A DNA stretch of 64,000 nucleotides, from contig JBAYFZ010000001.1 in the NCBI GenBank assembly GCA_041666915.1, forward strand, positions 286,335-350,334, written 5' to 3'. Every line of letters starts with the position of its first letter. Within the stretch, counting starts at the first letter, position 1. The DNA is from Minisyncoccota bacterium (GTDB lineage: Bacteria; Patescibacteriota; Minisyncoccia; Phycocordibacterales; PALSA-1337). Below are positions 14,564 through 55,161 of this stretch, piece by piece. The notes under the pieces are model-generated. The model saw only the letters and a program-made list of their open reading frames with translations. It made no database searches and was not told the origin of the DNA. A program made the position numbers and the translations under genes.

Positions 14564-15517
14564 CTATTTTCCTCTAAATTTACGATATCTTTGTTCAGCC
14601 TGTTTTCCATACATCATTGTGTAAACCATTGAGCTCTCAATACAGGAGTGACCGAGAATATTTGTGACGTCAGAGTTCGATCCTCCCTTTTCTATAATAT
14701 TTCTACCCATGTAATGTCTCATTGAGTGAGCATTCATATTCTTTTCAAGACCTGCTTTATTGGAATAGCCTCGAAGCATTTCACAAACACCGCTTTGTTT
14801 GAATCTGTATCCCCTAGTTTTGTTTGCACCAGAGTTATGGATTGATATAAATAATGCATTAGGATCACGCAGGACATTTCCACGCTTGAATCTTTCTCGT
14901 CTTTCAATCCATTTCTGAATCGCCTTGCTGGTTTCTTCAGTCCAGAAAATTTCTCGTAATGGTCTACGAGTTTTTGCCTTTTCAGTTTTAATAAGTGCTT
15001 TGTTGTTTACAAGATCCAAGTCATCCATATCAAGTGCCATAATTTCTCCGTTTCTAGCACCGGTATCCCAGAGCAATCTCACAATTGCTTCGTTTCTTAC
15101 ATTTCTAGGATCAGTATTCTGAGGAATGACACTGAGCAATTTTTTGTACTCCTCCTGAGTCGCAACTCGAGGTATCTTGTATTCCTTCTGAGGAATAGGT
15201 ATCAAGTTTTCGTTGAGGACCCTCCAACCTCTGAGGTTACAGAATTCGAAGAATTTCTTGTATGCCATGCATTTTGAAACGAAGCTATTATGCGACCATC
15301 CGATCTCTTTCATTAAATTCAAATATTCCATCATGTTATTTAACGTGATGTCTTCAATCTGTGGGTTACGCAAAAATAGGCAAAAAAGACGAAGGTCTTT
15401 GTCATTGCCTCTGGTAGTGGTACCGTTTATCTTAAACGTGCGCCAATTTGTAAATTCATCTATAGCATCTTTGAATAGCATATTAGTCAACCAAAAAGTC
15501 CACTCGATGCTAGTCAA
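14564..15517 (-). CDS. tyrosine-type site-specific integrase (phage integrase family)
   Basis: 317 aa; LWDTGARNGE (catalytic R), HSMRHYMG (H-x-x-R), GHSCIESSMVYT (catalytic Y). Confidence 0.9.
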   Translation of the reverse strand: MTSIEWTFWLTNMLFKDAIDEFTNWRTFKINGTTTRGNDKDLRLFCLFLRNPQIEDITLNNMMEYLNLMKEIGWSHNSFVSKCMAYKKFFEFCNLRGWRVLNENLIPIPQKEYKIPRVATQEEYKKLLSVIPQNTDPRNVRNEAIVRLLWDTGARNGEIMALDMDDLDLVNNKALIKTEKAKTRRPLREIFWTEETSKAIQKWIERRERFKRGNVLRDPNALFISIHNSGANKTRGYRFKQSGVCEMLRGYSNKAGLEKNMNAHSMRHYMGRNIIEKGGSNSDVTNILGHSCIESSMVYTMMYGKQAEQRYRKFRGK

Positions 15518-16985: not shown

Positions 16986-17303
16986 TTATTTTTGCTCACC
17001 TTTCATTCTGTCGATCATCATTTTGTAGCCTCCACAACCTTCTTTCAGCCAACGATTAATTTTTGTGATCGTTACTGGAGACTCACCTGATTCTTCTTGT
17101 ATTTGAGAAAATGGAACACCTGCATCTAGTTTCTTTGCAACCTCCCAACGCATAGCAAATTCACGAAGATCTCTTTCACTCATAAGATCTCTGAAAAAAG
17201 CCTTGAGCTCGTCTTCATTCTTGAGCGACAAAAACACCTTGAGCAAGTCTGGAGACTTTTGCTCTAACTCAGACCATATTCCATTTTTTTCTTCATCTGT
17301 CAT
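16986..17303 (-). CDS. TrpR-like DNA-binding protein, YerC/YecD family
   Basis: 105 aa; LREFAMRWEVAKKLDAGVPFSQIQEESGESPVTITKINRWLK matches the YerC/YecD TrpR-like pattern. Confidence 0.6.
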   Translation of the reverse strand: MTDEEKNGIWSELEQKSPDLLKVFLSLKNEDELKAFFRDLMSERDLREFAMRWEVAKKLDAGVPFSQIQEESGESPVTITKINRWLKEGCGGYKMMIDRMKGEQK

Positions 17304-17387
17304 ATTTTTTACTATTATACCATAAAAAAGAGCGGTAACCTTGTTTCCAAAGTTACCGCCCGTGTGTCCATTCTATGGACCAAGGAA

Positions 17388-17705
17388 CTAATTACCGCGA
17401 ATCTTTGCGATCGCGAGGATCGTATCGCCGGATTCGACGATGTCATCGACACTGGCTTCCTGGCCGTTGCGTTGAATCTCGCAACGTTCCAAGTTTTTGA
17501 TGCCGATGACTGCGAAGAGTGCGCCAATCGTGATTTTCTTCGTGAGCGGGACCTCCTGGATTTCTCCAGGGATCTTGCCCACGCTCGCAATGGCGTCCTT
17601 CTGGATGACTGTGCAATCGGGGAGATTTGTCGTCTCGGGCCGATCCAACACTTCCACATGCGGCCGTTCAGCAGTCGCCGCCAACTGATTCATTCTGTTT
17701 TTCAC
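17388..17705 (-). CDS. ubiquitin-like beta-grasp protein (ThiS/MoaD-like) ending ..AKIRGN
   Basis: 105 aa; C-terminal IQRNGQEASVDDIVESGDTILAIAKIRG fits the ThiS/MoaD beta-grasp pattern; lies immediately downstream of the E1-like gene. Confidence 0.5.
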   Translation of the reverse strand: MKNRMNQLAATAERPHVEVLDRPETTNLPDCTVIQKDAIASVGKIPGEIQEVPLTKKITIGALFAVIGIKNLERCEIQRNGQEASVDDIVESGDTILAIAKIRGN

Positions 17706-17732
17706 TGTATTTTCCTTTCAAGGTTCAGAGGT

Positions 17733-18419
17733 TTAGTAGTTCTTGCTGAGAACGATCAGCGGCGAGAGCGAAACGATCGCCTCGTTCGCGAACTTTTTGT
17801 TATTCGCAAAGTTGATCATTGTGAACACCGCCATGCCAGCGAGAGTTGCCACTGTCGGAGCGATTGCTCGCCTCGTGCAGGGGCTTTCTTCCGCCTCAGC
17901 ATCAGAATACAACGTTTTTTCATACGCCGCAATCTGATTTGGCATTGCTGGTTTGATCGCATAAATGCGACCGCCTTCGGCTTCCATCCGTGTCTCAATC
18001 ATCAAGTCAACCTTGAGCTGATAGCGGACAGACGATTCCCAGATCGTCTTGCGGCTCTCCATTGTGTCGGTGAGCACGAAAACGATTCCTTTCAGCGATC
18101 CCTTTGTAAACTTCTTGGAGACCGCTTTGATCTTGATGCCGGTGCCGGCTTCGACCGCCTTAGCCAGCGCGTCGACCTTCTTTTTTCCGACATCCGCAAG
18201 TCCGAAGACCTGATTTGGCAGATTGTGATTCTCCACCTCATCGAAGTCATAGACCGTGATGTCTTTGCACCCCATCTTGGCCAAGAGCCAGACGATGTAG
18301 GAGCCGGTTGCACCGACGCCGATCACCGTGATTGGTTTCTTGAAGTTTGACGGGGCGAAGATGTCGAGCTGTCGCCAGTAGTCAGGTTCGCTTGTCGGCT
18401 TATTTTTTGCGGCCGCCAT
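17733..18419 (-). CDS. ThiF/MoeB/E1-like adenylyltransferase (Ubl-activating enzyme-like)
   Basis: 228 aa; Rossmann ITVIGVGATGSYIVWLLAKMG...DFDEVENHNLPNQ typical of E1-like enzymes. Confidence 0.85.
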   Translation of the reverse strand: MAAAKNKPTSEPDYWRQLDIFAPSNFKKPITVIGVGATGSYIVWLLAKMGCKDITVYDFDEVENHNLPNQVFGLADVGKKKVDALAKAVEAGTGIKIKAVSKKFTKGSLKGIVFVLTDTMESRKTIWESSVRYQLKVDLMIETRMEAEGGRIYAIKPAMPNQIAAYEKTLYSDAEAEESPCTRRAIAPTVATLAGMAVFTMINFANNKKFANEAIVSLSPLIVLSKNY

Positions 18420-19260
18420 ATCCCCCTCCTTTCGAATGGAATGAACCGTTCTTGACCTTGGCCTTGATCTCGTCGGCGATCGTCTTGCGACGGGTATCGT
18501 CTCCGAGGTGCATAAGCCAGGGGCAGTCGGTGATCTTCACCTTCTGCGTATAGTCGAAGAAATCGAAGACGCACTTGCCTCCTCGAGTGAAGATGCCGCG
18601 AATGAAGAACGGATTATGAGCGAAGAGCTCCATCTGTTCATCGTCCTGGCCCGACGGCTCGGTCATGTCTCCCGGGTGCAGATGCCCCCAGAAAAGCATG
18701 GAGTTGAGGACCGACTTGTTCGCGGGGTCCTGCTTCAGCATGTCCGTGTAGAACTTGCCGATGCTCCCCTGATCGAATTCGCAGTGCGCTCCGCTCACCT
18801 GTTGGTTGAAGAGGAACACTTTGCCGATGAGATACCTGTCGCCGTCCAGTTTTTGAACGGTGCCAAGCCACCCCACCTCGTCATTGCCCGCAGCTTCCAT
18901 GATGTAGTGCGTATCGGTGTACGCCTCGAGAGACAGAAGAATGGTCGGGATTTGCATCTCGGTCATCACTTCGATCTTCGCTTCCGCCTCATGCGGAACC
19001 AACGGCTTTATTGCTTCTTCGGCAAAGCCTGGACCGGTGTAGATGTCAGACTGATTTTTCACGTTTTGCTCCTTTCTTGGTTTGTTGAAGTTCGCACTCT
19101 CGGACTCCGAAGCCGCCGTTCCCTTCCAGGAACTGGATGACGTACTCCGGTTCTCCCTGTGCCCATTCTTCGGGAGGTTTGAGGCGGGTGATACGACAGC
19201 GTTTACCGTCGTTGCCGGTATACCCCGATGTGCCGCGATTCGTGTAAACACAAACCACAC
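18400..19260 (-). CDS. JAB/MPN (JAMM) metallopeptidase; true start may be internal
   Basis: 286 aa; E...HLHPGDMTEPSGQDD = E / HxH-x7-S-x2-D JAMM motif; 20-nt overlap with the E1 gene. Confidence 0.75.
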   Translation of the reverse strand: MWFVFTRIAAHRGIPATTVNAVVSPASNLPKNGHRENRSTSSSSWKGTAASESESANFNKPRKEQNVKNQSDIYTGPGFAEEAIKPLVPHEAEAKIEVMTEMQIPTILLSLEAYTDTHYIMEAAGNDEVGWLGTVQKLDGDRYLIGKVFLFNQQVSGAHCEFDQGSIGKFYTDMLKQDPANKSVLNSMLFWGHLHPGDMTEPSGQDDEQMELFAHNPFFIRGIFTRGGKCVFDFFDYTQKVKITDCPWLMHLGDDTRRKTIADEIKAKVKNGSFHSKGGGYGGRKK

Positions 19261-19271
19261 CCATCTGGTAT

Positions 19272-20177
19272 TTATGATTCGGCGTTTTCATTCCGCTTAC
19301 CTCCCTTCTTCTTTTTGGCAACTGGCCAGTTGAATATTTCCGAATACGGACGATACTGATCTGAGCACTCATAGCTCTTGAGGTACTGGATGCATACCGA
19401 TACAGCTGCAGCGTATTTGTGCTCCGCAATCATGTGAGGCAGAACCTCTTGGATATTGCCGAGACAAGGCACGCCGTACGCTTCAATATGTGGATGGTGA
19501 TAGCCATCCGGGGTGCGAGTAAGATTCATCATTCTCACCGCCCCATCCTTGCCGACAGAATCGATCGCGATCTTGAACCGGCCAATGTCATAATCAACCT
19601 GTCGGTAGTTTATGAAAATGGGACCGGTATAAGCCACGATTTTTTTGCCGACAACCTCTAGTCGCTCGATGTCTGGATGCTTCATCAGTTGCTCAAATTC
19701 GTCACCGAACCGAGCAAGTGAAGCTTCATCAGTCCCAGCAACAACTTGTAGCTGTTGCTGTTTTTCTTCCAAGCGACGAAGGAAACCTACTAGCTGTTCT
19801 TGGCATTTCTCAATACCTGCACGCAACTTCGTAGTCTCCTGCTTCAGCTCGCGCACACGCTCGGCCTTGCGGTTGTAGCCGCAGAGCTCCATGTATTTGC
19901 GCTTCAGAATGTCTTGTGAGTTCGCTTTGGGTTTCCCTTTGGCGCTCGTATGACCGTTTTGGCTGAAATGTCCCAGATAGACGCCTTGGTAATCCGTTCG
20001 AACTTTCGTGACTTGGCTTTTGGCCACGCCGAGAATCTCGCAGAGTTCACCAAGGTCTTCCATTTGAACACCGACACATGCGTCACCGTTGATACGGAGA
20101 CGAGTGGTCTTGAGTCCAGCGAGACTTTCGCCTCGTAGACTCCGTTGCGGGAACGCAACAATGGTTCCAGTCTTCAT
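19272..20177 (-). CDS. E2 (UBC)-like ubiquitin-conjugating enzyme with N-terminal HTH/coiled-coil extension
   Basis: 301 aa; HHPHIEAYGVPCLGNI resembles the E2 HPN-x-G-x-C-L active-site motif, preceded by a beta-rich segment. Confidence 0.55.
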   Translation of the reverse strand: MKTGTIVAFPQRSLRGESLAGLKTTRLRINGDACVGVQMEDLGELCEILGVAKSQVTKVRTDYQGVYLGHFSQNGHTSAKGKPKANSQDILKRKYMELCGYNRKAERVRELKQETTKLRAGIEKCQEQLVGFLRRLEEKQQQLQVVAGTDEASLARFGDEFEQLMKHPDIERLEVVGKKIVAYTGPIFINYRQVDYDIGRFKIAIDSVGKDGAVRMMNLTRTPDGYHHPHIEAYGVPCLGNIQEVLPHMIAEHKYAAAVSVCIQYLKSYECSDQYRPYSEIFNWPVAKKKKGGKRNENAES

Positions 20178-20212
20178 TATTTGACCTCTTGACTTTCTTG
20201 ACGTGGTTTTGA

Positions 20213-20455
20213 CTAGTCCTTCAGGCAGACGTCAACCGCCCGAAGCACTTTTTGACCTTGCTCTCCATCCAGAGAGCCAACAAGGAAGGTAACGTTCAGA
20301 CCCTGAGCAAGCTCAAAGTTGTTACGTGTTGAAGCGACGACAAATTTTTGTCCGTCGTGCTCGCTTTGCTGATCTTTGACCCGCACCTTCCAGACCGGCT
20401 TGTCGCGAGAAGCATTTCTGCCCACCACGAATCCTGCATGGCGTTTATGGACCAT
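20213..20455 (-). CDS. hypothetical small protein upstream of the E2-like gene
   Basis: 80 aa ORF in the same GC-rich block and strand; an alternative overlapping ORF 20296-20556 looks spurious. Confidence 0.3.
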   Translation of the reverse strand: MVHKRHAGFVVGRNASRDKPVWKVRVKDQQSEHDGQKFVVASTRNNFELAQGLNVTFLVGSLDGEQGQKVLRAVDVCLKD

Positions 20456-20590
20456 ATGACTTGCTCCTTTGCTGGATAAACCAGCGATTTCAATGACCTT
20501 GCGGCAACGCGCCGCGTGTTCCTAAGGCAATCTTTCAGCCTATGGAATCTGAGCACAACCTAACATAATTAATAGGTTGTGTCAATAATC

Positions 20591-21517: not shown

Positions 21518-23278
21518 TTATAGCTCTGAATACTCGAAGCCGAGGAAAGGCTTTGCTCTTGTAAACTCAGCCTTCTTAACTTTTTCTATATCAAATTCAA
21601 AATCTTTTTGAATGCTTTCAAATTCATCCTTATTAATAGTTAGGATGTATTGGAATTGATGTTTTTTTGAAAGGTTGAAAAGATAATTGAGAGAACGAAC
21701 CATATCATCGCGACCAGTAGATGCAAAAATATTGTCATGTATGAGAAATTTAGGGTGTCTCTCAGAAGTGATTTTATTTACCATTAGCAATGTGTCGTAT
21801 ATGAATGTTTTTATCCGATTAATACCGGAGCTTCCATCCAATTTGATTCTATAATCAAATTCAACAAAACTAGCAGAAGATTCGTTAACATTAATTTGAA
21901 ACTGACAGTGCTTGTTCCCCGCTATATAGTCATGCATTTTCTTTAAATCATCTTCGAATGCAGATACTGTAGATTGTATTTTAAAGATTGTCTGCTCGAG
22001 TTCTTCAATTAAACCTTCCTTCTTCTTTTTAAGGGACTTCTGTTGGGATATTTTAGCCTGCAATATTTCATATGTTTGGGAAAGCTTCTCAAGCTCCATG
22101 TTTTTTTCTCGCTCAAGTTTAACGGCTTCTTTAATGCCATTTATGACTTCTTTTGCTTCCGTCTTGGAGTAGATTTTTGCTATTTCATTATCAATTCTTG
22201 AAATTTGTTCATCGACTGCAGTAATCTCAACATTAAGCTCCTTAAGTTTTTCACCCATTAGCGTATTCTGGAAATCGTCGACTTGTTTTTTAAATTCAAC
22301 AACCTGATCGAATGACTTCTGAACCATATCACCAAGCCCGGTCTTAAAATGATTGTATATGATTTGAACCTGTTTTGTATTTATTTTCTCAAGCTGTGGA
22401 AGAGATTTTATCTTTTTTACTAGATATTCCTTGCTTGCTTTTGTAGTCACTAACTTTTCAAGCTGAATTTGAAGATCGTTAAGGCGATCTTTCAGTTGCA
22501 CCATCCCCTCTGATGGATGTAACTCTTCGATGGCCAAATTAAGCTTTTCTATACTGTCCTTCAGCTCATTTATGTGAGAAGCAACCTCTTTTACCTCAAT
22601 TCCAGCATTTCTAAAGTCCTGCCTCAAATCTGCAGTAGTTTTAGATACATTTTTTAGATCTTGGGAAACCTTTTTTATTTTTTCGATAATATCTAAATTG
22701 ATTTGAAAAAGATAAAAATGTGGCTTTAGTAAATCCTCAAAGGAACTGACTGAAGAGCTCCGGTGTGGCTTCAAGATATCGCTATATAGGCTGTCTTCTT
22801 CTCTTATGAGAATTGATAGCAGGCTCCTGAAGGATGGCTTATCAGGATTGGTGTCATCAAGAAGGAGGTACGACAAATATTTCTTTGCTTCTTCAAGTTT
22901 ATCAAAGGTTTTTTCATCATCGTCGACAACAATAATAATTGGATCATTCTCGACTCGATTGCGTTTGATTGTAACTTTTCTGATTCGATTTTTAGACTCA
23001 ACTTCTATATCTAAGCATATGTATATTTTTGGATTGAGACTAATATCAGGTATTTTTGTGATTCTACTTTCATCTGCCCTTTTAAGAAAACAATAATTTA
23101 TAGCCTCGATAAGCAATGATTTACCCACACCATTCATCTTTTCTCGTTCTTTTTTATTTTCTATGTTCTCAGATTTTTCTCCAACAATAAAATTCAAGCC
23201 ACGGTCAAATTCTATGGATTTAAGTTCCTTTTTGTTGAATTCTTTTGGCTCAAATGATAATCGTCGAATTGTAATCAT
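21518..23278 (-). CDS. coiled-coil ABC/SMC-like ATPase (ABC-3C-type ATPase candidate)
   Basis: 586 aa; Walker A MNGVGKSLLIEAINY at N-terminus, long coiled coil, C-terminal PKFLIHDNIFASTGRD (Walker B/D-loop). Confidence 0.75.
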   Translation of the reverse strand: MITIRRLSFEPKEFNKKELKSIEFDRGLNFIVGEKSENIENKKEREKMNGVGKSLLIEAINYCFLKRADESRITKIPDISLNPKIYICLDIEVESKNRIRKVTIKRNRVENDPIIIVVDDDEKTFDKLEEAKKYLSYLLLDDTNPDKPSFRSLLSILIREEDSLYSDILKPHRSSSVSSFEDLLKPHFYLFQINLDIIEKIKKVSQDLKNVSKTTADLRQDFRNAGIEVKEVASHINELKDSIEKLNLAIEELHPSEGMVQLKDRLNDLQIQLEKLVTTKASKEYLVKKIKSLPQLEKINTKQVQIIYNHFKTGLGDMVQKSFDQVVEFKKQVDDFQNTLMGEKLKELNVEITAVDEQISRIDNEIAKIYSKTEAKEVINGIKEAVKLEREKNMELEKLSQTYEILQAKISQQKSLKKKKEGLIEELEQTIFKIQSTVSAFEDDLKKMHDYIAGNKHCQFQINVNESSASFVEFDYRIKLDGSSGINRIKTFIYDTLLMVNKITSERHPKFLIHDNIFASTGRDDMVRSLNYLFNLSKKHQFQYILTINKDEFESIQKDFEFDIEKVKKAEFTRAKPFLGFEYSEL

Positions 23279-23517
23279 TATTTTATGCGATAAATATATG
23301 GCTCATCAAAATCAATTAGTCCGTTCATGTACAAAAAAATTAGAGCATACATTGAATTACTATAATTAAATTGTCTACCACTTTGCTTCAAAATTTCATA
23401 GAGATCGAAAATAGAAATCCTTTCCTGGTTTTTCAACTCTTTCAAAACTAAATAACCAGCATATACGCTTGAGTCTTTTATATCCTGATCTTGTGATATT
23501 AAAATATTGCTTGTCAT
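23278..23517 (-). CDS. small helical protein, candidate ABC-3C middle component
   Basis: 79 aa; stop overlaps ATPase start (ATGA); size and position fit the middle-component role. Confidence 0.45.
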   Translation of the reverse strand: MTSNILISQDQDIKDSSVYAGYLVLKELKNQERISIFDLYEILKQSGRQFNYSNSMYALIFLYMNGLIDFDEPYIYRIK

Positions 23518-23521
23518 ATAT

Positions 23522-24061
23522 TTATTCGAGTGGGTTTGGAAAAACGTTACACTCTATCAGCTGCTTATACAAAAAATACTCGACAGCCTCAGAACTAAAA
23601 CTTTTTTCTGCACTATTTTCAAACTTATCTGCAAATAATTTACATAAGGAATTCAATGCGTCTACGGGATTGTTCTTCTTCTCAGAAAGTATTTGCAAGC
23701 TTAGATTCCTTAAATAACTGCAGAGTTCTTCGTAGGCAAATTCATCTATACCCGAATTGTTCTTAGCCTCATCGTATGAGCTCCGATATAGAACATGCAA
23801 ATTTCCGAATCTAGATTTAAGCGTGTCTTTATATTCAGCAAAACGCTCCTCAATTTTTTTGAAAAAATCCTTTGGGTAATCAATCAGATCGGGTGTAACA
23901 CCTCTTTCGCGAGCAATTTCAGGAATAAGATTAATCACCTGAAGCATTGTATTCACTTCATTCGCAAGCTTTACTTTATTCCCATATTCAACCTTATTGT
24001 CATTTCCAAAAATTATTGGTGACTGGCCGCCTATGGTTTTTTGATCAATATTTGTTGCCAT
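23522..24061 (-). CDS. hypothetical protein, candidate third component of the ABC-3C-like operon
   Basis: 179 aa, 4 nt upstream of the 79-aa gene, same strand. Confidence 0.4.
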   Translation of the reverse strand: MATNIDQKTIGGQSPIIFGNDNKVEYGNKVKLANEVNTMLQVINLIPEIARERGVTPDLIDYPKDFFKKIEERFAEYKDTLKSRFGNLHVLYRSSYDEAKNNSGIDEFAYEELCSYLRNLSLQILSEKKNNPVDALNSLCKLFADKFENSAEKSFSSEAVEYFLYKQLIECNVFPNPLE

Positions 24062-24214
24062 TAATATTTTACTGAGTTTCGATCGCCCATAACGTTTGGT
24101 GACTTATCACCCTTCGTCTTTTGGATTTTCTTAACCCAGTAAAAATGCATTGCAACACCTCCCAACGTCAGACCTATAATAAAGCTAATTGTGACATTTA
24201 AAGTGATTTCCATA
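24062..24214 (-). CDS. small single-TM protein (50 aa), first ORF of the operon (below the ORF-track cutoff)
   Basis: translation MEITLNVTISFIIGLTLGGVAMHFYWVKKIQKTKGDKSPNVMGDRNSVKY; its TAA overlaps the downstream ATG (TAATG). Confidence 0.3.
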
Positions 24215-24294
24215 TAAAAATAATTATAGCACTAATGGCGTGCAATGTTAACTTTTTATTCACCGACTCCCAGACTACTCAAAAGTAGTAATTC

Positions 24295-25056
24295 TTAGAT
24301 TTTTTGAAACACAAATAGATGCTCGTGCATTATTAGCAAAAAATTTGATTCCTTTGATTTTGTAACCCAGAATCCAGTAGCTTTACAGTTGAATTGTCTC
24401 TTTATGATGTCTTCTTTGAGAAGCAATCCTGATTTCAAAAAACGATCCATCACTTTGTATGCGAGTGGCTGGTACAATTTTTTTCGCCTCGTATCTCCCA
24501 TAAGGATTGCACAAAACTTGCCGGGTTTTAGAACCCTATAAAATTCTCTTGCAACTTTTTCCATCTCATCACAAAAGACATCAATATCACTAATGTTTGA
24601 TAGGTCGTCTACTAACTTTCCTTCACTGTACTTAATGATATCTACATATGGTGGATGAGTGAGTACGAAGTCTACAGTATTATCTTTTATTTTTGATAGG
24701 TTACGTGAATCCCACTTGAATCCTCTTTGCCACGCTTTATTATCAACCTTAAAATTTAGAGATTTCTTTGTACGATCAAGTGCTACTTGATTCACGTCAG
24801 AATAAATAATATTTCTATTCAGAATCCTTGCCTCAATTGCTGTAGTACCACCACCAATCATTGAATCAAGTAAAACATCACCTTCTTTTGAGTATCGAAG
24901 AATGAGATTTCGAGCTACTTCTGGGGACCAGTTACCCCGCCAATCTGATGTATGAGTTGCCCAATTACCACGACGAGGAAAAGCCCAGACCGTTGTACAT
25001 TCTAGTTCGAATTCTTCCGGGTGCAGTTTTAATTCTGTAGCTTTCTTTATTGCCAT
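24295..25056 (-). CDS. DNA methyltransferase (N6-adenine/N4-cytosine class), second MTase of the GATC R-M system
   Basis: 253 aa; motif I DSMIGGGTTAIEA and motif IV THPPY. Confidence 0.8.
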   Translation of the reverse strand: MAIKKATELKLHPEEFELECTTVWAFPRRGNWATHTSDWRGNWSPEVARNLILRYSKEGDVLLDSMIGGGTTAIEARILNRNIIYSDVNQVALDRTKKSLNFKVDNKAWQRGFKWDSRNLSKIKDNTVDFVLTHPPYVDIIKYSEGKLVDDLSNISDIDVFCDEMEKVAREFYRVLKPGKFCAILMGDTRRKKLYQPLAYKVMDRFLKSGLLLKEDIIKRQFNCKATGFWVTKSKESNFLLIMHEHLFVFQKI

Positions 25057-25062
25057 GGGTAT

Positions 25063-25920
25063 TTACCATTCTAGTTCATTTAGCGCACCGGATTCGAGCA
25101 TGTTTAGGTTGAATACATACTCGTTATGGTTATATGTTTCTTCAAGTGGTCTCTTGGTTGTGTTCCAGCCTAATCCATCAGTTATCCAGATGAAATCAAT
25201 ATCCTGAGACTTCAGTTCATCATTTAGACTTTTAAATTCTCCACAAACAGCTTTTAATTTTGAGCCACCGCCATTGTAAAAGTTTGCTTCAAATAATTTA
25301 AGCTTTTTATTGCTTGTATTATAAATTGCAAAATCAAAGCTTCTTTCTGACTTGTCTACTTTTATATCAAAACCCCATTTAGCCTTTATCGCACTAGGAC
25401 GTGCCTGTGCAAGACATTCATATCCATTTTTATTACAAAAATCAGTGAGAAATGTTCCTATTATTTCTTCCATCAGAGTACCGCCACGATTCTTACGACC
25501 ATTACTGTCGAGACCGACTTCTACGCCCATAACATAATCAACGAGATTCTTTATACCGTCTTTTTGAAATAGTTTTGCAAGACCTGATTTGCTTAGGAAT
25601 TCAAAATATTTGTCAGCATCCTTTTCTTTACCAGAAAAATCGAAGAATTCGGAGTTCTTTGTAGCCTTATCAAATATTTCTAGTTTGTTTTCTCTAACCG
25701 CTAATAGAACAGGTAGAGCTTTTATTATGTCTGGGTTTGAGCTATATAGTTTTACAAATTCCTCTTTTAAATTTTCCTTACCGAGCAGGTAGTTAAGCTT
25801 ATTTAGAGCTATCTCTAATTCTGAACTGTTAGAAAATACCTTGTTCCAATTGACGAAATAATCCCAAGTTTTAATTGAGCTTTTGAATGTTGTTATTAAG
25901 TTATTAAAATCTTTTTTCAT
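25063..25920 (-). CDS. type II restriction endonuclease, DpnII/MboI family (GATC-specific)
   Basis: 285 aa; lies between two MTase genes in MboI-like order; family assignment from recollection of DpnII-like sequences, not from a search. Confidence 0.6.
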   Translation of the reverse strand: MKKDFNNLITTFKSSIKTWDYFVNWNKVFSNSSELEIALNKLNYLLGKENLKEEFVKLYSSNPDIIKALPVLLAVRENKLEIFDKATKNSEFFDFSGKEKDADKYFEFLSKSGLAKLFQKDGIKNLVDYVMGVEVGLDSNGRKNRGGTLMEEIIGTFLTDFCNKNGYECLAQARPSAIKAKWGFDIKVDKSERSFDFAIYNTSNKKLKLFEANFYNGGGSKLKAVCGEFKSLNDELKSQDIDFIWITDGLGWNTTKRPLEETYNHNEYVFNLNMLESGALNELEW

Positions 25921-25922
25921 GT

Positions 25923-26879
25923 TTAGTAATTTGTTATGAGAACCTCGGTGATTTTTCCTCTACCTGATCCTTTTGAGTTAATGGCTCGGCCAGCCTCAAC
26001 CTTGTTAATTCGTATACCTTTGAAACCTGAATAAATCTTATTTATGAATGGCGTGTCTGAGTTCGAGAGCATTACGTAGCAACCTCGCTTATTCAATTCT
26101 AGGAACGTATCTCTGAGTTCTATTTGTTCTTTATCAAGGAATGATTCTGCTGTGTACGATGTGAACGATGCCGTCTTGCTTACTGGATAATATGGAGGAT
26201 CAAAGTATATAAAATCACCTTTTTTTGCAGTCTTGAGTACCGCTTTGTAATCTTGGTGCTTTATATCAATGTCCTGTAGTGCCTTGGAAACCTTTCTTAA
26301 ATTATCCTGATCGCAAATCAAAGGATTAGTATGTTTGCCGTAAGGGACATTAAATCCACCTTTACTATTCACTCTGTACATTCCATTGAAACAAGTTCGA
26401 TTCAAAAAGATAAATCTAGAAGCAACATCAACATCATTAAGTGTTTTCCAATCTAGCGCACGAATCTTCAAAAAATAATCTTTATCAATATCATGCTTCT
26501 TGAGTGCAACAATTAATTTCTCAACATCGTTTTTAATGACATTATAGGTTGTAACAAGCTCTTTATTTAAATCAGATAGGTATCCTTCTGCTGGAAGAAG
26601 GTCAAAAAACACAGCACCACCACCGACAAATGGTTCATAATATTTTCCTGTCTTAATATCAAACTTTTCTGGGGGATATAAATTTAATCCACGAAATTGT
26701 GCAAGTAACTGACGCTTGCCGCCCACCCACTTTATAAAAGGCTTTGGTTTTTCTGAAATAATTCTTGCAACATCGTCAAAAAGATTTGTTTTATCGGCAA
26801 GAAGAAACGCTCTATGTGCAAAAATAGCATTTACATCAAACTTTGATTGTATTTCCTTAATAGCTTGCTGTGTAGTCAT
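25923..26879 (-). CDS. Dam-family N6-adenine DNA methyltransferase (GATC)
   Basis: 318 aa; KWVGGKRQLL, EPFVGGGAVFF, NRTCFNGMYRVNSKGGFNVPYG, DPPY. Confidence 0.9.
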   Translation of the reverse strand: MTTQQAIKEIQSKFDVNAIFAHRAFLLADKTNLFDDVARIISEKPKPFIKWVGGKRQLLAQFRGLNLYPPEKFDIKTGKYYEPFVGGGAVFFDLLPAEGYLSDLNKELVTTYNVIKNDVEKLIVALKKHDIDKDYFLKIRALDWKTLNDVDVASRFIFLNRTCFNGMYRVNSKGGFNVPYGKHTNPLICDQDNLRKVSKALQDIDIKHQDYKAVLKTAKKGDFIYFDPPYYPVSKTASFTSYTAESFLDKEQIELRDTFLELNKRGCYVMLSNSDTPFINKIYSGFKGIRINKVEAGRAINSKGSGRGKITEVLITNY

Positions 26880-27230: not shown

Positions 27231-27836
27231 TTAAAGTTGATTAAGTAAGCTGATAATTTGAGACTTGATTCCCTCTTTACTTACCGGTGGGACTGGAAAG
27301 AGTCGCTTGAGAAGTTCTGAACGAACAATCTCAGGCTTTTCTTTGTAATAGGCAATGTCGCCGTGAATGATGATATTTTTTTCATTAAGCACGAATGCCG
27401 TATCAGGATTATTTGCAAAAGATTTTACGAGCTCGGTAAGCTGTTGGTATTGCCACTCTGTAATGTCATTCTCGTTTGGTTCGACCACACCATCTTGATC
27501 CACGTCATATCCGGCTGCGAGCTCGATTCCGATCGTGTACTGATTCGGATTTACCCACGAGCTGTCTAGATTCTTTTTCATCACTCGCTTAGCTCGATCG
27601 TTTGGGTTACTGATTACGCCTGCATGCCATGCAATGTCAGTTATTTTCACAAGTTGAGTAATTTCTCCTTCTTTTCGTCCAATCACAAAGTGAGATGACG
27701 ATCGGTTCGTCCGATTGGCGTTCATGAGCCAACTCACCGCCCCAAGATATGAGCCAAGGGTGAAATGAAGGACAATAACACCCTTCTTTGTGGGACCGGC
27801 TACATAGTTTGGAGTCTGCTGAAATGGTATGTTCAT
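27231..27836 (-). CDS. N-acetylmuramoyl-L-alanine amidase (Amidase_2/PGRP) endolysin
   Basis: 201 aa; HFTLGS, SSHFVIG, AWHAG, IGIELA motifs. Confidence 0.85.
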   Translation of the reverse strand: MNIPFQQTPNYVAGPTKKGVIVLHFTLGSYLGAVSWLMNANRTNRSSSHFVIGRKEGEITQLVKITDIAWHAGVISNPNDRAKRVMKKNLDSSWVNPNQYTIGIELAAGYDVDQDGVVEPNENDITEWQYQQLTELVKSFANNPDTAFVLNEKNIIIHGDIAYYKEKPEIVRSELLKRLFPVPPVSKEGIKSQIISLLNQL

Positions 27837-37386: not shown

Positions 37387-38589
37387 TTAAGACTGAACTT
37401 GAACGTCTAGATATTGAGGCTTACCGTCGGCAAAGGTGAAGATTCCGTAGATAGCATCGGATCGAATGATCTTTGCTCGCTGATACGGATCGTCGACCAT
37501 TTCGACTTCGGCAGTGTCTTGAATAACCACGTCTATCGCACCCTTCTTACCGTAGTAAGAGTGGATGAGGTTCTTGGTCAGCGTGTAGGTAGCGTTTCCA
37601 CCAAATACAAGGCGACCTGAACCAGTTCCAGTAATAGTGATCTGATCAGTCGTATCGTTGTCGACAGCAGCAAGCTGAAGATCTACCCAGTTTGACTGGT
37701 CATAACCAGGATCAACGTCAGTCCATGCGACGTACTTCGTACCGGCTGTGCCAGTAGTTTGGTGAATCGCATCGATCAGGTTGTCTCGAGTGGCATCAAC
37801 GCCTGCTTCGATAAGCACGTTACCTGGCGTAGCACCAATTGCGGCCACGAATGTGTACACGAAGCCGTTGATCGAGAATGTCTCGCCAGCTGATGGATTT
37901 GCTGCCATCGTGATGATCGCTTCAGCGAGAAGGTTCTCGGAGAGATAAAGCTCCGCACCGCCCACGGGACCCGCATATCCGTTTTTGAATGCGGCAGCAG
38001 CGAGATCAATGTTTTTCGACATGACGTACTGCTCAATCACCGATCCGCCATAACTGTCGATAACAAGAGCAAGATTGGTGAGATCCTGATTCGCTCGGCG
38101 CAACTTCGCACGACCCTGAGCCAAAAGCTGAGGAATGTTTGTAGTGGAGAGAACGATCGGAGTTCCGTTCGATGTCATTGTGGTGAGGTCGCCGGTATCG
38201 AATGCTTGCTGAGCATTCTTAACCTGAGCGAACACATCGGCATCAATGTATCGAGAGAGCTTCTTAGCAACTTCTGCACCGATTGTCTCGGCAGGATTCA
38301 AGGGACCAGCCTGAATCATTTCCTTCTTCGAGACACGGAAGTCTGCACCCTTGTTCTTGTTCACGAGTAAGGTTTCGCCGGAGTCATTGAGCTGGTCAAT
38401 GGTTCGGTTTACTCCAATCGTGATGTTACGAACACGAATTGGCGCAAGAGAATACTTCACACGCTTTACGCTCGCACCGTAGTCGAGCTTTTTTTCAAGG
38501 CGCGTGTTTGCGATCTCCATCGCAACGAGTACCTTGTCGAACACAGCCTGATAGGCGTTGTCGAACTGTTCTTTAAATACTGCTAACAT
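37387..38589 (-). CDS. major capsid protein candidate
   Basis: 400 aa, directly downstream of the scaffold-like gene. Confidence 0.55.
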   Translation of the reverse strand: MLAVFKEQFDNAYQAVFDKVLVAMEIANTRLEKKLDYGASVKRVKYSLAPIRVRNITIGVNRTIDQLNDSGETLLVNKNKGADFRVSKKEMIQAGPLNPAETIGAEVAKKLSRYIDADVFAQVKNAQQAFDTGDLTTMTSNGTPIVLSTTNIPQLLAQGRAKLRRANQDLTNLALVIDSYGGSVIEQYVMSKNIDLAAAAFKNGYAGPVGGAELYLSENLLAEAIITMAANPSAGETFSINGFVYTFVAAIGATPGNVLIEAGVDATRDNLIDAIHQTTGTAGTKYVAWTDVDPGYDQSNWVDLQLAAVDNDTTDQITITGTGSGRLVFGGNATYTLTKNLIHSYYGKKGAIDVVIQDTAEVEMVDDPYQRAKIIRSDAIYGIFTFADGKPQYLDVQVQS

Positions 38590-42909: not shown

Positions 42910-42935
42910 AAAATGTGAAAAAGTGTGTGCAATCA
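42910..42935 (-). promoter_or_regulatory. conserved 26-nt motif copy 3, overlapping the TerL stop codon and 23 nt upstream of the portal start
   Basis: identical 26-mer. Confidence 0.5.
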
Positions 42936-44621
42936 AATGCCGATGTCTGGATATTGCGGACCTTCATCCACCAGTTCGTCTTCATATGCAGGTTTCACTT
43001 TTCCATATGGAGTGTCGATCAAGCGTTCAGGTCGGGCATCTCGGGGCTTTTCCGTTCCGGCAGGTCGTGCGATATCGCTTTGATACGCTGTCGCATCGCT
43101 TATGTCGTCATGATCGGCATCGGGAAAACGCACGAGCTCGTTTTCAAGGTCTTTGCATTCGCCTTGCAGGTGATACACGCTCCTGGTCTCGTAGCGGTAC
43201 AAGAGTCCGGTGCGAATGCGATCTTGTTTTGATCGACCCTCATGCTTGAGCCACGTCAAAGGTAGGAAAGTTTGCCGCACTCTCTGTTCGTGTCGAAGCA
43301 TCGGCTCAAGCCCACGAGTGAATGCAGTATCTTCCCATCCCATCTTCAAAGGAGGCGTGCCTGATTGTATAAGAAAATTATAAATGCCGAACATTTTCTC
43401 AATGATTCCAGTGGGACCGAGTTTCTCTCTCCAAGCTTTCAGATGCCACTTTCCCTCTCGGTCGATCCAATTGATGCAGAAGCCGACAAAGTCTCCGCCT
43501 GCGGTTACTACGCCATCTTCTTTTCTGCTCGGTGTGTCGATCGTGACGTATGCCGCAAGTTTCTTTTCAAGTAGAGCTTCCCATGAGATCGGCATAAACC
43601 ACTCTCGCTTAAAGAGGGCTTTCATTTCATCTATCGGCTGACAAAGCATTTCCGCTTGGAAGTCCATGTCGCCTTCTTCTGGTGTCCACATAGATCTTCT
43701 TTTCGCATCAATGCTTGTTTTGTTTGTAGCTTCCGCTTCGGCATCGGTCATCACCCATCTTTGCGGCCACGATGGTGTATGCAATCCGGACATGAGCGTT
43801 CCTTGGCAAATCGGGACGATGCGAACCTTGAGTTCAGGATCATGCTTGGCACGCTCTATCGTACTTTGTACATTTCCGTATTCGCTCAGGATATTTCCAA
43901 GATACATAACCCTGCGACGTTTTGAGTCGAGACCTCGCTTGAATTCTTGGATGTGCATGCGTACCTGACTTGTTGCCGCTTCGCTTCTTAGTGTCTTCTT
44001 TGTTTCAAAATCATCGAGCAAGACGAAGCCTGGGCGCATCGCTCCATGCACTCGACCTCGCACGCTTTCTTGTGTGCTGTGTGCTTCAACACGGATGCCT
44101 GCTTTTATGATCCTTCCGTATTCATCTTTCTTGGGATTGGTGACGAAATCTTTTACGCGCTTTTGAGTTATCTGATCCTTTGAACGCTTCACGTTGTACA
44201 GCTCACCAAAATCATTGATGAAGCGACTGTTGGTTTGAAGCTCCCAGACAACGTCAAAAAGGATACGTTCGGAGTTGGTGCTATCAAAAGCATCGACGTT
44301 TATGTACGGCTCTATCTCATAGGCGATCATGTAAAGAATAAGCGCCTTAGCAAAACTCGTCTTTGCACTTTCGCCGAACATAAACCATGCGACTTCTCTC
44401 ACTTTGAAATCAAGGAGGTCATGCACATCCCTCATCATGTCGTAATGGAACGACGCAAACTCGCTCCAGATATAATGCTGGAGATAATAAGTGACAAAGT
44501 AGCCGAAGTGCCTACGCAGTGCCTTCGTACGCGCCGCTATGTTGCTCCCCTTGAGGAATTGGATTCCCTGTTGGTTGATCGGAGATGCTACTTCCAGTAG
44601 TTGGTCGTTTATCGTTTCCAT
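42933..44621 (-). CDS. terminase large subunit
   Basis: 562 aa; ATPase Walker B VLLDDFET and terminase nuclease-type C-terminus; start uncertain (110-nt overlap with upstream ORF). Confidence 0.8.
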   Translation of the reverse strand: METINDQLLEVASPINQQGIQFLKGSNIAARTKALRRHFGYFVTYYLQHYIWSEFASFHYDMMRDVHDLLDFKVREVAWFMFGESAKTSFAKALILYMIAYEIEPYINVDAFDSTNSERILFDVVWELQTNSRFINDFGELYNVKRSKDQITQKRVKDFVTNPKKDEYGRIIKAGIRVEAHSTQESVRGRVHGAMRPGFVLLDDFETKKTLRSEAATSQVRMHIQEFKRGLDSKRRRVMYLGNILSEYGNVQSTIERAKHDPELKVRIVPICQGTLMSGLHTPSWPQRWVMTDAEAEATNKTSIDAKRRSMWTPEEGDMDFQAEMLCQPIDEMKALFKREWFMPISWEALLEKKLAAYVTIDTPSRKEDGVVTAGGDFVGFCINWIDREGKWHLKAWREKLGPTGIIEKMFGIYNFLIQSGTPPLKMGWEDTAFTRGLEPMLRHEQRVRQTFLPLTWLKHEGRSKQDRIRTGLLYRYETRSVYHLQGECKDLENELVRFPDADHDDISDATAYQSDIARPAGTEKPRDARPERLIDTPYGKVKPAYEDELVDEGPQYPDIGI

Positions 44622-45120
44622 TTTCTTGTGATGTTGTTTTTGACGGCAGTAATTTTCTGAATCCGAACAATTCTTCTATACGAAGATCGTCTTCATCGGT
44701 GACGAGCATTGTGCCGGCAAGTCTCTCGCCCTTGCTTGTTAGATCAATGTGCTGTGGTGGTCTTCCATCGAGATATGCCCATACGAGCTGAATCATTTTC
44801 GGATCGCCTTCAATCGCCAGTTTTACAATCTTCTGCGCAAGAGCTTCTTCAAGCGGTAGTGGATTGCCAAACTCATCTTTTGCTTCAAGGGCGAGAAGCC
44901 TTTCTCGTACCCTGTGCGTGAGCTGTTTTATTCCTGACGGGCGACCTGTGGGATTTCCTGAAAAGCCTGGCTTGAAGCGACCAGAATCATCCCTTACCTG
45001 ATCTTTTCCTGATGTATCAGGTGGAACGACATCGGACTTGATGTCCTGCTTCACCTGTTCTTGCCCTGTTACAGGCGGTATCAGGAGCGGTTTATCGTTA
45101 TTATTTTCTTGATTATTCAT
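44512..45120 (-). CDS. terminase small subunit-like protein (DUF5681-like)
   Basis: 202 aa; RFKPGFSGNPTGRPSG motif; position immediately upstream of TerL. Confidence 0.45.
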   Translation of the reverse strand: MNNQENNNDKPLLIPPVTGQEQVKQDIKSDVVPPDTSGKDQVRDDSGRFKPGFSGNPTGRPSGIKQLTHRVRERLLALEAKDEFGNPLPLEEALAQKIVKLAIEGDPKMIQLVWAYLDGRPPQHIDLTSKGERLAGTMLVTDEDDLRIEELFGFRKLLPSKTTSQENGNDKRPTTGSSISDQPTGNPIPQGEQHSGAYEGTA

Positions 45121-46420
45121 GTGTCGTTTTTAGCCAGTTTTCCGGCTGACCGTTTTTAATGATCGATTCGATTCCGGTGTAGTCGACCCATCGCTGAACC
45201 ACTACATCCACAAACTTCGGATCAAGCTCAATGCCTGCACACGCTCGGCTCGTTTTGTGGCAGGCAATGAGAGTACTTCCGCTTCCAAGAAACGGATCGG
45301 CAATCAGGTCATCGACCTTTGAGCTATTGAATAGTGCATAAGTGATGAGTTCCACTGGCTTTTGAGTCGGATGCTTGTATTCGCTCACTCGATCACGCTT
45401 CATCGTCCATATCGTGAGCTTTCCCTCTGTCTCGAGCTTACGCTGTCGCTTCGCCCAGTTGAGAATCTTCTGATCGCTGTCATGAAAGTTCAGGACCGTA
45501 TGATTTCTTCGATCCCCGTAGAAGACAGCTTTCACTCCTTCCTTTGAAACGTAGAAGAACGGCTCATGCTTCCATCGGTAATCTCCCCAGCCCATAGATG
45601 CCGTTGGCTTATTCCATATGAGTTGGTTATGGACCGACATTCCCTGCTTCTTCAGAGCTGATTCAAACTGCGCCTGCGTTGAGGTTGAGTGGAAGACGTA
45701 CCATCCGGCTCCGCCTTTTGCAGACTCGGCTATCCGAGCGAACACGGCTTCGAGGAATGTATCGAATGCCACATCTGCCATATTGTCGTTGAGAATTTTC
45801 TGGCTGGTATTCTCGCCACGCCCCGAATAATTGACGTTGTATGGCGGATCAGTAAAAACGCAATCAGCTTTTCTGCCCTGCATTATTTTCTTCCATGATT
45901 CTTCCTCGGTTGAGTCTCCGCATGCGATCGTGTGCGGACCGAGCTGATACACGTCGCCTATCTTGCTCTTAGGCTCTACAGGAGTTTCAGGCACGACATC
46001 ATCTTTCTCATCGTCTTCAACAAGCAGGTCTTTGGTGAAGCCGGTGATTGTTATGTCGAAGCCTGCAATTTGCAGTAACTTTAGGTCAGTGATGACTAGT
46101 CCCATGATCCAGTCGCTCTCATTGAGCTTGTTGTCCGCTAATCTGTAGGCAGTCTCTTGTGCTTCAGTGAGAGGAGCTGTCTCGGGACCGCCAAACACAT
46201 TTTTTCCGATGTCGTCCATGATCCATATCGGCTTCAGCTCGTCTTTGTATTTTTCCCATGTCGCAAATCTTCCGTGACCTACAACGATCACACCTTGCTG
46301 ATTCACAATTACAGGCTGTCTCCAGCCTACCTCCTTCACGATTGCGGCGAGCTTGGTGAGCTGTTCGACAGGATGCTCTTTGGCATTATTTTTGTATGGT
46401 TTTATGTCAGTGATTTGCAT
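45113..46420 (-). CDS. ParB-like nuclease domain fused to DNA methyltransferase (N6A/N4C)
   Basis: 435 aa; N-terminal ParB-like region, FTDPPYN (motif IV), DPFLGSGST (motif I). Confidence 0.85.
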   Translation of the reverse strand: MQITDIKPYKNNAKEHPVEQLTKLAAIVKEVGWRQPVIVNQQGVIVVGHGRFATWEKYKDELKPIWIMDDIGKNVFGGPETAPLTEAQETAYRLADNKLNESDWIMGLVITDLKLLQIAGFDITITGFTKDLLVEDDEKDDVVPETPVEPKSKIGDVYQLGPHTIACGDSTEEESWKKIMQGRKADCVFTDPPYNVNYSGRGENTSQKILNDNMADVAFDTFLEAVFARIAESAKGGAGWYVFHSTSTQAQFESALKKQGMSVHNQLIWNKPTASMGWGDYRWKHEPFFYVSKEGVKAVFYGDRRNHTVLNFHDSDQKILNWAKRQRKLETEGKLTIWTMKRDRVSEYKHPTQKPVELITYALFNSSKVDDLIADPFLGSGSTLIACHKTSRACAGIELDPKFVDVVVQRWVDYTGIESIIKNGQPENWLKTTHE

Positions 46421-46837: not shown

Positions 46838-47257
46838 TTAAATTTGTTGATGATTAATCGAATCTGATTCAAGGATCTTTCCGCAAAAGCTACATCTTTT
46901 TATCCATCGAATATGCTGACAATTTTTGTGACGTTGTTGCTCTGCTAAGTTGCGAATGTACTCGTACGAACCCTCGACCAACTTTTTCTTTGTTTGTTTT
47001 GTATCTCTGTAAGTAATATGGAGATACTTTGTCTTCTTTGCCTTGCTGTAAACCTTTGCAACTTTGTCAGGCAGAACAGTTTTAACTTTTACTTTTCTCA
47101 CCCATCCTTTCGATCTGACGTGGTAGTGAATCGTACTGTGGTATATCCGATAGAACACCGATATCCATTTAATTTTCCACCCATAATCTTCAAAAGATTT
47201 ACGGATCTCTTTTAACTTTTGGGGAGATAGTTTGTAGCATCGATGTTTTGCTTTCAT
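46838..47257 (-). CDS. hypothetical Cys/His-rich (zinc-ribbon-like) protein
   Basis: 139 aa; C-terminal CQHIRWIKRCSFCGK. Confidence 0.35.
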   Translation of the reverse strand: MKAKHRCYKLSPQKLKEIRKSFEDYGWKIKWISVFYRIYHSTIHYHVRSKGWVRKVKVKTVLPDKVAKVYSKAKKTKYLHITYRDTKQTKKKLVEGSYEYIRNLAEQQRHKNCQHIRWIKRCSFCGKILESDSINHQQI

Positions 47258-54847: not shown

Positions 54848-55161
54848 ATTGGAATTATAATCGTTAATATCATTTTCAGCTAATCGTGCGAGGTCGTCCG
54901 CCAGCTGGTGGAGCGGATCGCTAATTTCTACAATTTCTCACCCCATTCAGTCCATTTTGGATACAAACTACCAGCGACAAAGACACATGGCAATATGATG
55001 ATTCCACAAAAAATCCAGAGTATGAAAAAAAATGCCCTTGGCAACCATTCCTTGAGGATCTTAAACATTTCCTTCCAAACCTCCCATAAGGCCGAAAATA
55101 ACTCTGTAACTGTTTCCATAGCACGATATACTAATCTATTTTTGGCAATAGTGCAATCTTG

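Follow-up and report, generated by a model that had tools for sequence, protein, structure and literature searches.

A prophage-borne, Lamassu-like operon in a Paceibacterota genome with a conserved membrane peptide and a third component that appears to lack an enzymatic domain

Four genes and their junctions

The DNA analysed here (the window) is a stretch of 64,000 nucleotides from contig JBAYFZ010000001.1 (positions 286,335 to 350,334), part of a genome of Candidatus Paceibacterota, the phylum now called Minisyncoccota within the candidate phyla radiation (CPR, or Patescibacteria). Its minus strand carries an operon of four genes, encoding a membrane peptide of 50 amino acids (aa), a third component of 179 aa (hereafter the adaptor), a middle component of 79 aa and an ATPase of 586 aa (Table 1). 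An earlier note, made from the letters of this DNA alone, had listed these four minus-strand open reading frames (ORFs) and read them as an ABC three-component (ABC-3C) conflict system; all four are present. Peptide and adaptor genes share one base in a TAATG junction, as that note described, adaptor and 79-aa genes are separated by a 4-nt gap, and the 79-aa gene meets the ATPase gene in another TAATG overlap, not in the ATGA that had been given. All four genes occur together in each of the 17 distinct related loci examined (numbered below with the prefix L), so that the failure of the small ORFs to be conserved in homologous loci, on which the earlier note would have abandoned its reading, was not observed.

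A sigma-70-like promoter candidate with 11/12 consensus positions and an extended TG precedes the start codon of the peptide gene by about 10 nt; it is the best match in a 7-kb scan, although the consensus that defines it may not reflect the rules of a CPR host. Promoter-like matches over the whole region were not enriched relative to shuffled sequences.

ATPase, middle component and family assignment

The largest product of the operon (586 aa) belongs with the LmuB/Rad50-like ABC ATPases of the DUF2326/YydD type. Its C-terminus matches Pfam PF10088 (DUF2326; 2e-20), and among the PADLOC models it matches PDC-M68B at 1.5e-45 and LmuB at 1.2e-15 across residues 2-555. The AlphaFold2 model (predicted local distance difference test, pLDDT, 84.6) comprises an ABC head and a coiled coil of ~260 residues (~196-453), the long coiled coil that had been noticed in the sequence. 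Foldseek searches of this model against the PDB returned YydD as the best match (9a6c_A, 1.6e-24) as well as LmuB chains (9ux7_A, 1.6e-12; 9hqu_A, 7e-12; 9nyg_B, 1e-9) and Rad50. A phmmer search with the ATPase found nothing meaningful among PDB sequences, and the family link was reached only through profile and structure searches.

In an alignment of 49 homologues, N49, V51, G52 and K53 of the Walker A motif are invariant, in agreement with the N-terminal NGVGKS (residues 49-54) singled out by the earlier note, and D481 and G482 of a signature-like DGSSG are nearly so. The same note had called the C-terminal FLIHDN a D-loop; it is instead the Walker B strand (hhhhD) with Asn at the position of the catalytic Glu, H514 and D515 being invariant and N516 nearly invariant. 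Naturally deviant Walker B motifs have been reported for LmuB and DdmC (bioRxiv 2025.06.23.660979; PMC11707656). Neither the sequence nor the 49-homologue alignment contains a CxxC zinc hook at the apex of the coiled coil. Membership of Wadjet, RecN or SbcCD was considered and rejected: PADLOC JetC models reached only E 0.024-0.25, NCBIfam Rad50/SMC models scored far under their cut-offs, and the operon contains no Wadjet (JetA/B/D) or SbcD/Mre11-type partner genes. By analogy with its relatives, we propose that the ATPase would act as a DNA sensor.

The 79-aa protein matches Pfam PF20293 (MC6, ABC-3C Middle Component 6) with E 7.1e-10 and 39.2 bits against a cut-off of 27.2, and no PADLOC model. 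Its gene stands between third component and ATPase in related loci too. The MC6 product is recorded by JGI, Logan and ENA, not by NCBI, and its three operon neighbours have GenBank accessions; the gene seems to lack an annotation in GenBank.

ABC-3C, Lamassu type II and DdmABC form one family of systems with the order LmuA-LmuC-LmuB (PMC10586767; bioRxiv 2025.03.14.643221). Grouping with Lamassu, which the earlier note had set down as grounds for refuting its ABC-3C call, was thus a confusion of names. The profile searches that it had suggested recovered MC6 for the middle component, above the Pfam cut-off, and DUF2326 for the ATPase, and its call is borne out. Because of these two matches, together with the LmuB and PDC-M68B models, the structural similarity to YydD, LmuB and Rad50, the deviant Walker B and the gene order, we regard the operon as very probably a Lamassu/ABC-3C-family system; it is prophage-borne and of the DUF2326/MC6 branch.

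A third component probably reduced to its docking domain

The adaptor matched no family in Pfam, NCBIfam, PHROGs or PADLOC. Its AlphaFold2 model (pLDDT 76.7; predicted template-modelling score, pTM, 0.71) has disordered residues 1-28 followed by an all-helical domain of ~150 residues, with helices at 27-52, 75-102, 107-127, 132-148 and 157-170. Structure prediction, which the earlier note had recommended, therefore delivered a helical domain, but no significant match to solved LmuA, to which the structural similarity fell below significance; the highest TM-score was with YydB (0.43), likewise below significance.

Relatives were found by sequence. A profile built from 21 homologues and run against 1.84 billion representatives retrieved 187 relatives in two forms, and a broader alignment of 38 sequences added only three proteins in a word-indexed search. 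Short-form relatives (175-199 aa) stand alone and align from end to end. Long-form relatives (~315-325 aa) align at profile positions ~25-178 only, which match their C-terminal ~150 residues, and their N-termini are Pfam SMEK_N, with HNH_2 in one. Comparison of the adaptor family with the C-terminal half of the SMEK_N third component of L012 by hhalign gave a probability of 99.2 (E 2e-19), and an invariant C-terminal CNVFPN in the adaptor is also the end of the nuclease-bearing third components. SMEK_N matched the PADLOC model of a restriction endonuclease (REase) associated with prokaryotic Argonautes (pAgo) at 5e-42, and a published list of nuclease domains found in short-pAgo partners includes it (PMC10810196). 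These alignments indicate that the adaptor is probably the C-terminal docking domain of its family plus a short head, apparently without an enzymatic domain, and that the SMEK nuclease of the sister third components is probably replaced here by a disordered head of ~20 residues. The lack of a recognisable effector in the third component, as first remarked from the sequence, stands: there is no family match, and only a probable docking domain and a short motif were found.

A protein without an enzymatic domain might itself be the killer. If so, the helical domain would be released, oligomerise and bind DNA or enter the membrane, with the peptide restraining the head as an immunity factor, antitoxin or chaperone. 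The domain is highly conserved, including its invariant CNVFPN end, and oligomerised LmuA is the active species in solved Lamassu systems, as this alternative would have it. However, the same domain and the same CNVFPN occur on SMEK and HNH third components, where they are the docking module, and the adaptor domain has neither a catalytic-looking family match nor hydrophobic segments; we therefore consider an effector role for the adaptor unlikely.

A membrane peptide where the nuclease is absent

The peptide likewise matched no family in Pfam, PHROG, PADLOC or NCBIfam. Its gene lies directly upstream of the adaptor gene in 17/17 distinct short-form loci (and was found in this position in 19 fetched loci), whereas an upstream membrane peptide is present in 0/7 SMEK-type loci. 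Peptides of short-form loci are 50-77 aa long and are built to one plan: a single hydrophobic helix (two in L041), basic residues and a polar tail. Among nine orthologues, substitutions at codon positions 1:2:3 were distributed 371:187:932, and this third-position bias, taken with the conservation of the gene, identifies the 50-aa ORF as a real gene. Hydropathy predicts a transmembrane helix in the window peptide, with a Kyte-Doolittle peak of 1.69 over 19 residues, directly followed by the basic stretch KKIQKTK. Since a basic flank marks the cytoplasmic side under the positive-inside rule, the C-terminal tail is predicted to be cytoplasmic.

Junctions between peptide and adaptor genes vary among loci (a TAATG overlap, TAA then an in-frame ATG, a 2-nt gap, a 17-nt overlap), which identifies the two products as separate polypeptides. 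The alternative of one protein made by frameshift or readthrough was rejected, as the junction frame differs between loci. An apparent fusion of 263 aa (P0021, L006) is a mis-called adaptor start that hides an ordinary peptide gene: at 8083-8238 of L006, a gene for a 51-aa peptide lies in another frame and was missed by the gene caller. Automated annotation probably under-reports the peptide gene elsewhere too.

That the peptide occurs exactly where the SMEK nuclease has been lost is the pattern of an effector swap, and not of an added regulator. By analogy with two-gene killing systems that share a motif, the peptide could well be the effector, coupled to the adaptor through a matched motif, a proposal for which we see the case as evenly poised.

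A matched motif in peptide tail and adaptor head

The tail of the peptide and the head of the adaptor carry a common motif of 20 residues, a feature on which the earlier note had not remarked. In the window, 10/20 positions are identical and the alignment scores 52; shuffled heads gave a mean of 18.1 (sd 4.1) and 0/2000 reached 52. The tail-head score was beaten by 0/2000 shuffles for L009 and for L011, and by 1/2000 for L019. Head residues Q7, G11, S14, P15, G19 and N22 are invariant in the 21 homologues, the AlphaFold2 pLDDT of the head is <50, and the head is missing from the long, SMEK-type relatives.

Substitutions in one copy are mirrored in the other. In L009, SP has become AL in both the tail (KGDSALNVI) and the head (SGDRALNIV). 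Tail DNSIRQNAFGRNGRNTVN and head DNSIRQATYGKNGHNQVN of L011 have DNSIRQ..G.NG.N.VN in common, tail KSTGDNSPNQMSI and head KSSGDNSPNSVQI of L042 share GDNSPN, and tail IKQKSSGKGAINAV and head IKQENKGDGGTNIV of L043 share IKQ..G.G..N.V. Over all 40,320 permutations of eight clade representatives, the summed score of cognate pairs was 354 versus 243 ± 30.5 for permuted pairs (p = 0.0008). A single ancient duplication followed by independent evolution predicts equal similarity of cognate and non-cognate pairs, and the cognate excess therefore indicates concerted evolution. Identical tail and head residues share a codon in 46% of cases and nucleotide identity is ~55-63%, figures that stand without a codon-usage null; they point to a likeness kept at the protein level, and recent gene conversion as its source is not supported.

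Genomic setting and distribution

The operon sits in an AT-rich island behind the lysis genes of a prophage (~27000-53000 of the window), directly downstream of an amidase and a putative holin. The GC content is 0.32-0.36 over 21-27 kb, in keeping with the ~33% that had been estimated for this island, versus 0.41-0.50 in the prophage body, which also encodes a Sak4-like annealing protein. No near relative of the prophage was found among 50,697 phage records, and a megablast search of the 6.7-kb island against the same records gave no match.

Two neighbours of the operon had been recognised as restriction-modification (R-M) and nuclease-like genes, and searches identified them as a DpnII-type R-M cassette and a NucS_C/DUF5655 gene (the PADLOC single-gene candidate PDC-S18). 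The DpnII cassette also precedes the operon in L005 and L026/L027. The PDC-S18 gene has a promoter-like site of its own (21514-21486) and stands alongside the Lamassu-like operon in only one related locus, the close prophage relative L005, where the operon copy is 72-87% identical and in the same setting and the locus ends in a serine recombinase. Its co-occurrence with the operon, proposed as a check by the earlier note, thus does not extend beyond that locus; a role as part of the system was rejected, and the gene is an independent neighbour. Other copies of the operon are flanked by BREX, type III R-M-like genes, serine recombinases and transposases.

The AT-rich island is separated from a Trp-repressor-like gene (16986-17303) by a GC-rich segment (50-55%; 17300-20500), with a ThiF/E1-like and a weakly JAB-like protein among its products; this segment may be a ubiquitin-like conjugation module of foreign origin, of the kind found in Bil or as a CBASS accessory, with a role in defence. 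With the DpnII R-M cassette, the Lamassu-like operon, PDC-S18 and this E1/JAB-like module, the prophage of this Paceibacterota genome would carry a stacked defence island. Just past the prophage, two divergently oriented tRNA-Ala genes with GGC and TGC anticodons (55161-55234 and 55740-55813) stand ~500 bp apart.

Table 1 Features of the operon and its surroundings (positions are those of the window; residues are those of the encoded protein)
Feature	Positions	Strand	Basis or assignment
50-aa membrane peptide	24061-24213	minus	ORF
179-aa third component (adaptor)	23522-24061	minus	ORF
79-aa middle component	23278-23517	minus	ORF
586-aa ATPase	21518-23278	minus	ORF
Predicted transmembrane helix of peptide, residues 3-27, ITLNVTISFIIGLTLGGVAMHFYWV	24133-24207	minus	hydropathy
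Peptide tail motif, residues 31-50, QKTKGDKSPNVMGDRNSVKY	24064-24123	minus	alignment to head
Adaptor head motif, residues 7-26, QKTIGGQSPIIFGNDNKVEY	23984-24043	minus	alignment to tail
Walker A of ATPase, residues 47-54, KMNGVGKS	23117-23140	minus	alignment
Deviant Walker B of ATPase, residues 511-516, FLIHDN	21731-21748	minus	alignment
Sigma-70-like promoter candidate (TTAACA, 17-nt spacer, TG-TATAAT)	24223-24251	minus	consensus match
NucS_C + DUF5655 protein, 292 aa	20591-21469		PADLOC single-gene candidate PDC-S18, 6e-68
DpnII-type R-M cassette, two methylases	24295-26879		Pfam and PADLOC
N6_N4-type methylase	24295-25056		part of DpnII cassette
DpnII endonuclease	25063-25920		flanked by both methylases
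Dam-like D12 methylase	25923-26879		part of DpnII cassette
Amidase (lysin)	27231-27836		prophage
Major head protein	37387-38589		prophage
Large terminase	42933-44621		prophage
ParB-methyltransferase fusion	45113-46420		prophage
Second DNA methyltransferase	47254-48393		prophage
Tyrosine integrase	14564-15517		outside obvious prophage body
ThiF/E1-like protein	17733-18419		Pfam ThiF 4e-23; PADLOC E1-E2 3e-12
Weakly JAB-like protein, 286 aa	18400-19260		
301-aa protein	19272-20177		no assignment
80-aa protein	20213-20455		no assignment

A scan of one genome per species (185,579 species) contained eight loci with adaptor relatives, the short form in Gracilibacteria, Nomurabacteria, Peribacteria and one further metagenome-assembled genome (MAG), and the long SMEK form in Saprospiraceae and Acidobacteriota. 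A metagenome scan contained 17 loci, and named homologues of the ATPase come from MAGs of Patescibacteria, Parcubacteria and Gracilibacteria. The short form is rare and was observed only in CPR bacteria. On a Candidatus Gracilibacteria contig (L001/L016), the four genes have, under table 11, lengths equal to those in the window. Gracilibacteria read TGA as glycine, and the module seems to be free of in-frame TGA, which would fit a mobile element crossing hosts with different codes.

The place of the operon just behind the genes for the amidase and the putative holin, and the part that Rad50-like ATPases also play in repair, would fit an operon that serves the prophage itself, processing or repairing DNA ends during replication, with the peptide as a holin-like or superinfection-exclusion factor. 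We judge such a role outside defence very unlikely. The four genes are also found away from lysis modules, with R-M, BREX or recombinase genes nearby or in ordinary chromosomal surroundings, and no relative turned up when 2.9 million viral contigs were scanned for the adaptor or when the phage records were searched. The operon lacks the Mre11/SbcD-type nuclease partner, and MC6 and DUF2326 are parts of the Lamassu/ABC-3C family, in which a defensive role has been demonstrated experimentally for several members.

A proposed split output

Our best reading, to which we give as much credence as doubt, is that the system is an abortive-infection defence with a re-engineered, split and non-enzymatic output. 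In solved Lamassu, the C-terminal domain of LmuA is held by two LmuB and LmuC, and sensing of DNA ends leads to its release and tetramerisation (bioRxiv 2025.06.23.660979); oligomerisation of LmuA in turn activates the attached N-terminal module. In the Bab/Agp pair, a small protein with a helix and a motif is activated by the N-terminal motif of the adjacent gene's product. From the first of these analogies we derive sequestration, release and oligomerisation, and from Bab/Agp and NWD2/HET-S the nucleation by heads and templating of tails: (i) the LmuB dimer and MC6 would sequester the C-terminal domain of the adaptor; (ii) phage DNA ends or replication intermediates would be bound and, with ATP-driven engagement of the heads of the ATPase, the adaptor would be released; (iii) the released adaptor would oligomerise through its C-terminal domain; (iv) the clustered adaptor heads would nucleate a beta-rich assembly; (v) this assembly would recruit or template the matching peptide tails and so cluster their transmembrane helices; and (vi) the membrane would become permeable, killing the infected cell before the competing phage could mature. 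Amyloid-like templating as the specific form of the coupling is a tentative suggestion by analogy, which we hold to be less likely than not.

Several observations weigh against this abortive-infection reading. None of the Pfam CTD1-12 models matched the adaptor domain, and identity of the adaptor with CTD10, the usual partner of MC6 (as in L014), was rejected at the sequence level, with no Pfam match and an hhalign probability of 0.2. Bell and HeLo domains have a helical sheath that is missing from the peptide, which is therefore probably in the membrane constitutively. Salmonella LmuB has a CxxC zinc hook that the window ATPase lacks, and details of the solved complexes may not transfer. The motif is short and contains an invariant Ser-Pro, which is odd for the core of a beta-strand, and co-variation of tail and head is equally expected if both follow one binding site on a shared partner.

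These last points would suit a system in which head and tail dock in the same LmuB/MC6 pocket, or pair 1:1 as a beta-hairpin, and the peptide only anchors or regulates the complex at the site of phage DNA entry, the membrane, leaving killing or interference to the adaptor oligomer, the ATPase or a neighbouring nuclease. Nuclease genes indeed lie nearby in the window (PDC-S18, DpnII), but the former recurs only in one close prophage locus and the latter only in L005 and L026/L027, the other flanks being unrelated. No other conserved gene is fit to be the effector, and a mere tether would not be expected to appear exactly where the SMEK domain is lost. Such a shared-receptor or membrane-tether role is, in our estimate, somewhat improbable, although less so than either an effector adaptor or a role outside defence.

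If the abortive-infection reading with templating is true, the operon would connect SMC-family defence with amyloid signalling for the first time, would contain the smallest known amyloid-controlled killer and would place a defence of CPR bacteria on their prophages. Amyloid signalling would then reach beyond NLR-type partners, multicellular bacteria and E. coli. An SMC/Rad50-like sensor that signals through a prion-like, self-templating 20-residue motif common to the adaptor and a 50-residue peptide is, however, a possibility that we hold in some doubt. Liberation followed by oligomerisation has been put forward in structural studies of Lamassu as the way in which effectors become active, together with the question of whether this is valid beyond nucleases; a subfamily in which the adaptor would be a docking domain with a tag and the killer a separate peptide would test that idea directly. 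Current detectors would miss or half-call the system: PADLOC matches the ATPase only, and the MC6 gene has no NCBI source.

Comparison with known systems

The comparisons below suggest a known family (Lamassu/ABC-3C) with a new element, a split output in which a membrane peptide stands instead of a nuclease. Like the window operon, Lamassu type II systems (V. cholerae DdmABC, Salmonella LmuACB) have the order third component, small middle component and SMC/Rad50-like ATPase of ~600 aa, a deviant Walker B, and a location in a prophage or defence island. They differ in a third component of ~350-430 aa with Cap4 or other effectors, versus 179 aa and apparently no enzymatic domain here, and in a middle component of MC3 rather than MC6; the C-terminal domain of the adaptor, for its part, matches none of the Pfam CTD models. 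Where an N-terminal enzymatic effector is expected of a Lamassu third component, the adaptor has only a disordered head of 26-28 residues. The fourth gene, for the membrane peptide, is conserved in the window type, unlike in DdmABC and LmuACB, and membrane peptides do not figure in published lists of Lamassu effectors (nucleases, SIR2, hydrolases, proteases, monooxygenases), a comparison that covers literature other than the founding ABC-3C paper (Krishnan et al. 2020).

In the SMEK sister systems (L012/L013, L044 and L020-L023 of Saprospiraceae and Acidobacteriota), the third components have a homologous C-terminal domain ending in CNVFPN. In L012 and L044 the SMEK gene is followed by an MC6-like gene and then by a DUF2326 ATPase 34-36% identical to that of the window. 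Their third components begin with an REase-type nuclease of ~170 aa, and these systems have neither the head motif nor an upstream membrane peptide. The archetype of DUF2326, B. subtilis YydD-YydB (9a6c integrative model), provides the best structural match to the ATPase, both proteins being 586 aa long, whereas YydB has 481 aa versus the 179 aa of the adaptor. YydB presumably carries a phosphoesterase-type effector, and we know of no membrane peptide partner of YydD-YydB. PADLOC PDC-M68 agrees with the window in its ATPase (PDC-M68B), but PDC-M68A is a CTD10-type third component, as in L014, and adaptor, MC6 and peptide match no PADLOC model. Membership of PDC-M68 was rejected, as B is matched and A is not.

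Outside this family, we found no literature linking amyloid signalling with Lamassu. In Bell/BASS-NLR and Bab/Agp pairs, as in the peptide and adaptor of the window, the upstream small protein starts with a hydrophobic helix and ends in a motif of ~20 aa rich in G, N, S and Q, and its downstream neighbour bears the matching motif at its extreme N-terminus. Matching motifs on adjacent genes, a feature of amyloid-signalling gene pairs, were found in 17/17 loci, and the conserved MEITL start of the window peptide recalls the 'MEPIS' N-terminus described among amyloid pairs. Bab/Agp, which protects E. coli from phages, also lies in prophage defence islands. In contrast to those pairs, the window peptide is a bare transmembrane peptide of 50 aa with no Bell, Babybell or HeLo helical bundle and no Pfam match, its motif, of an unclassified family, contains an invariant Ser-Pro, and its partner is a probable Lamassu-type docking-domain protein rather than an oligomerising NLR or TGP sensor. 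The fungal NWD2/HET-S pair comes from eukaryotes, comprises an NLR sensor, a HeLo domain and a 21-residue repeat pair, and has no sequence relationship to the window operon. Its logic would be the same as that proposed here, with the N-terminal motifs of an oligomerised sensor serving as template for the motif of a killer that targets the membrane and is encoded by the neighbouring gene.

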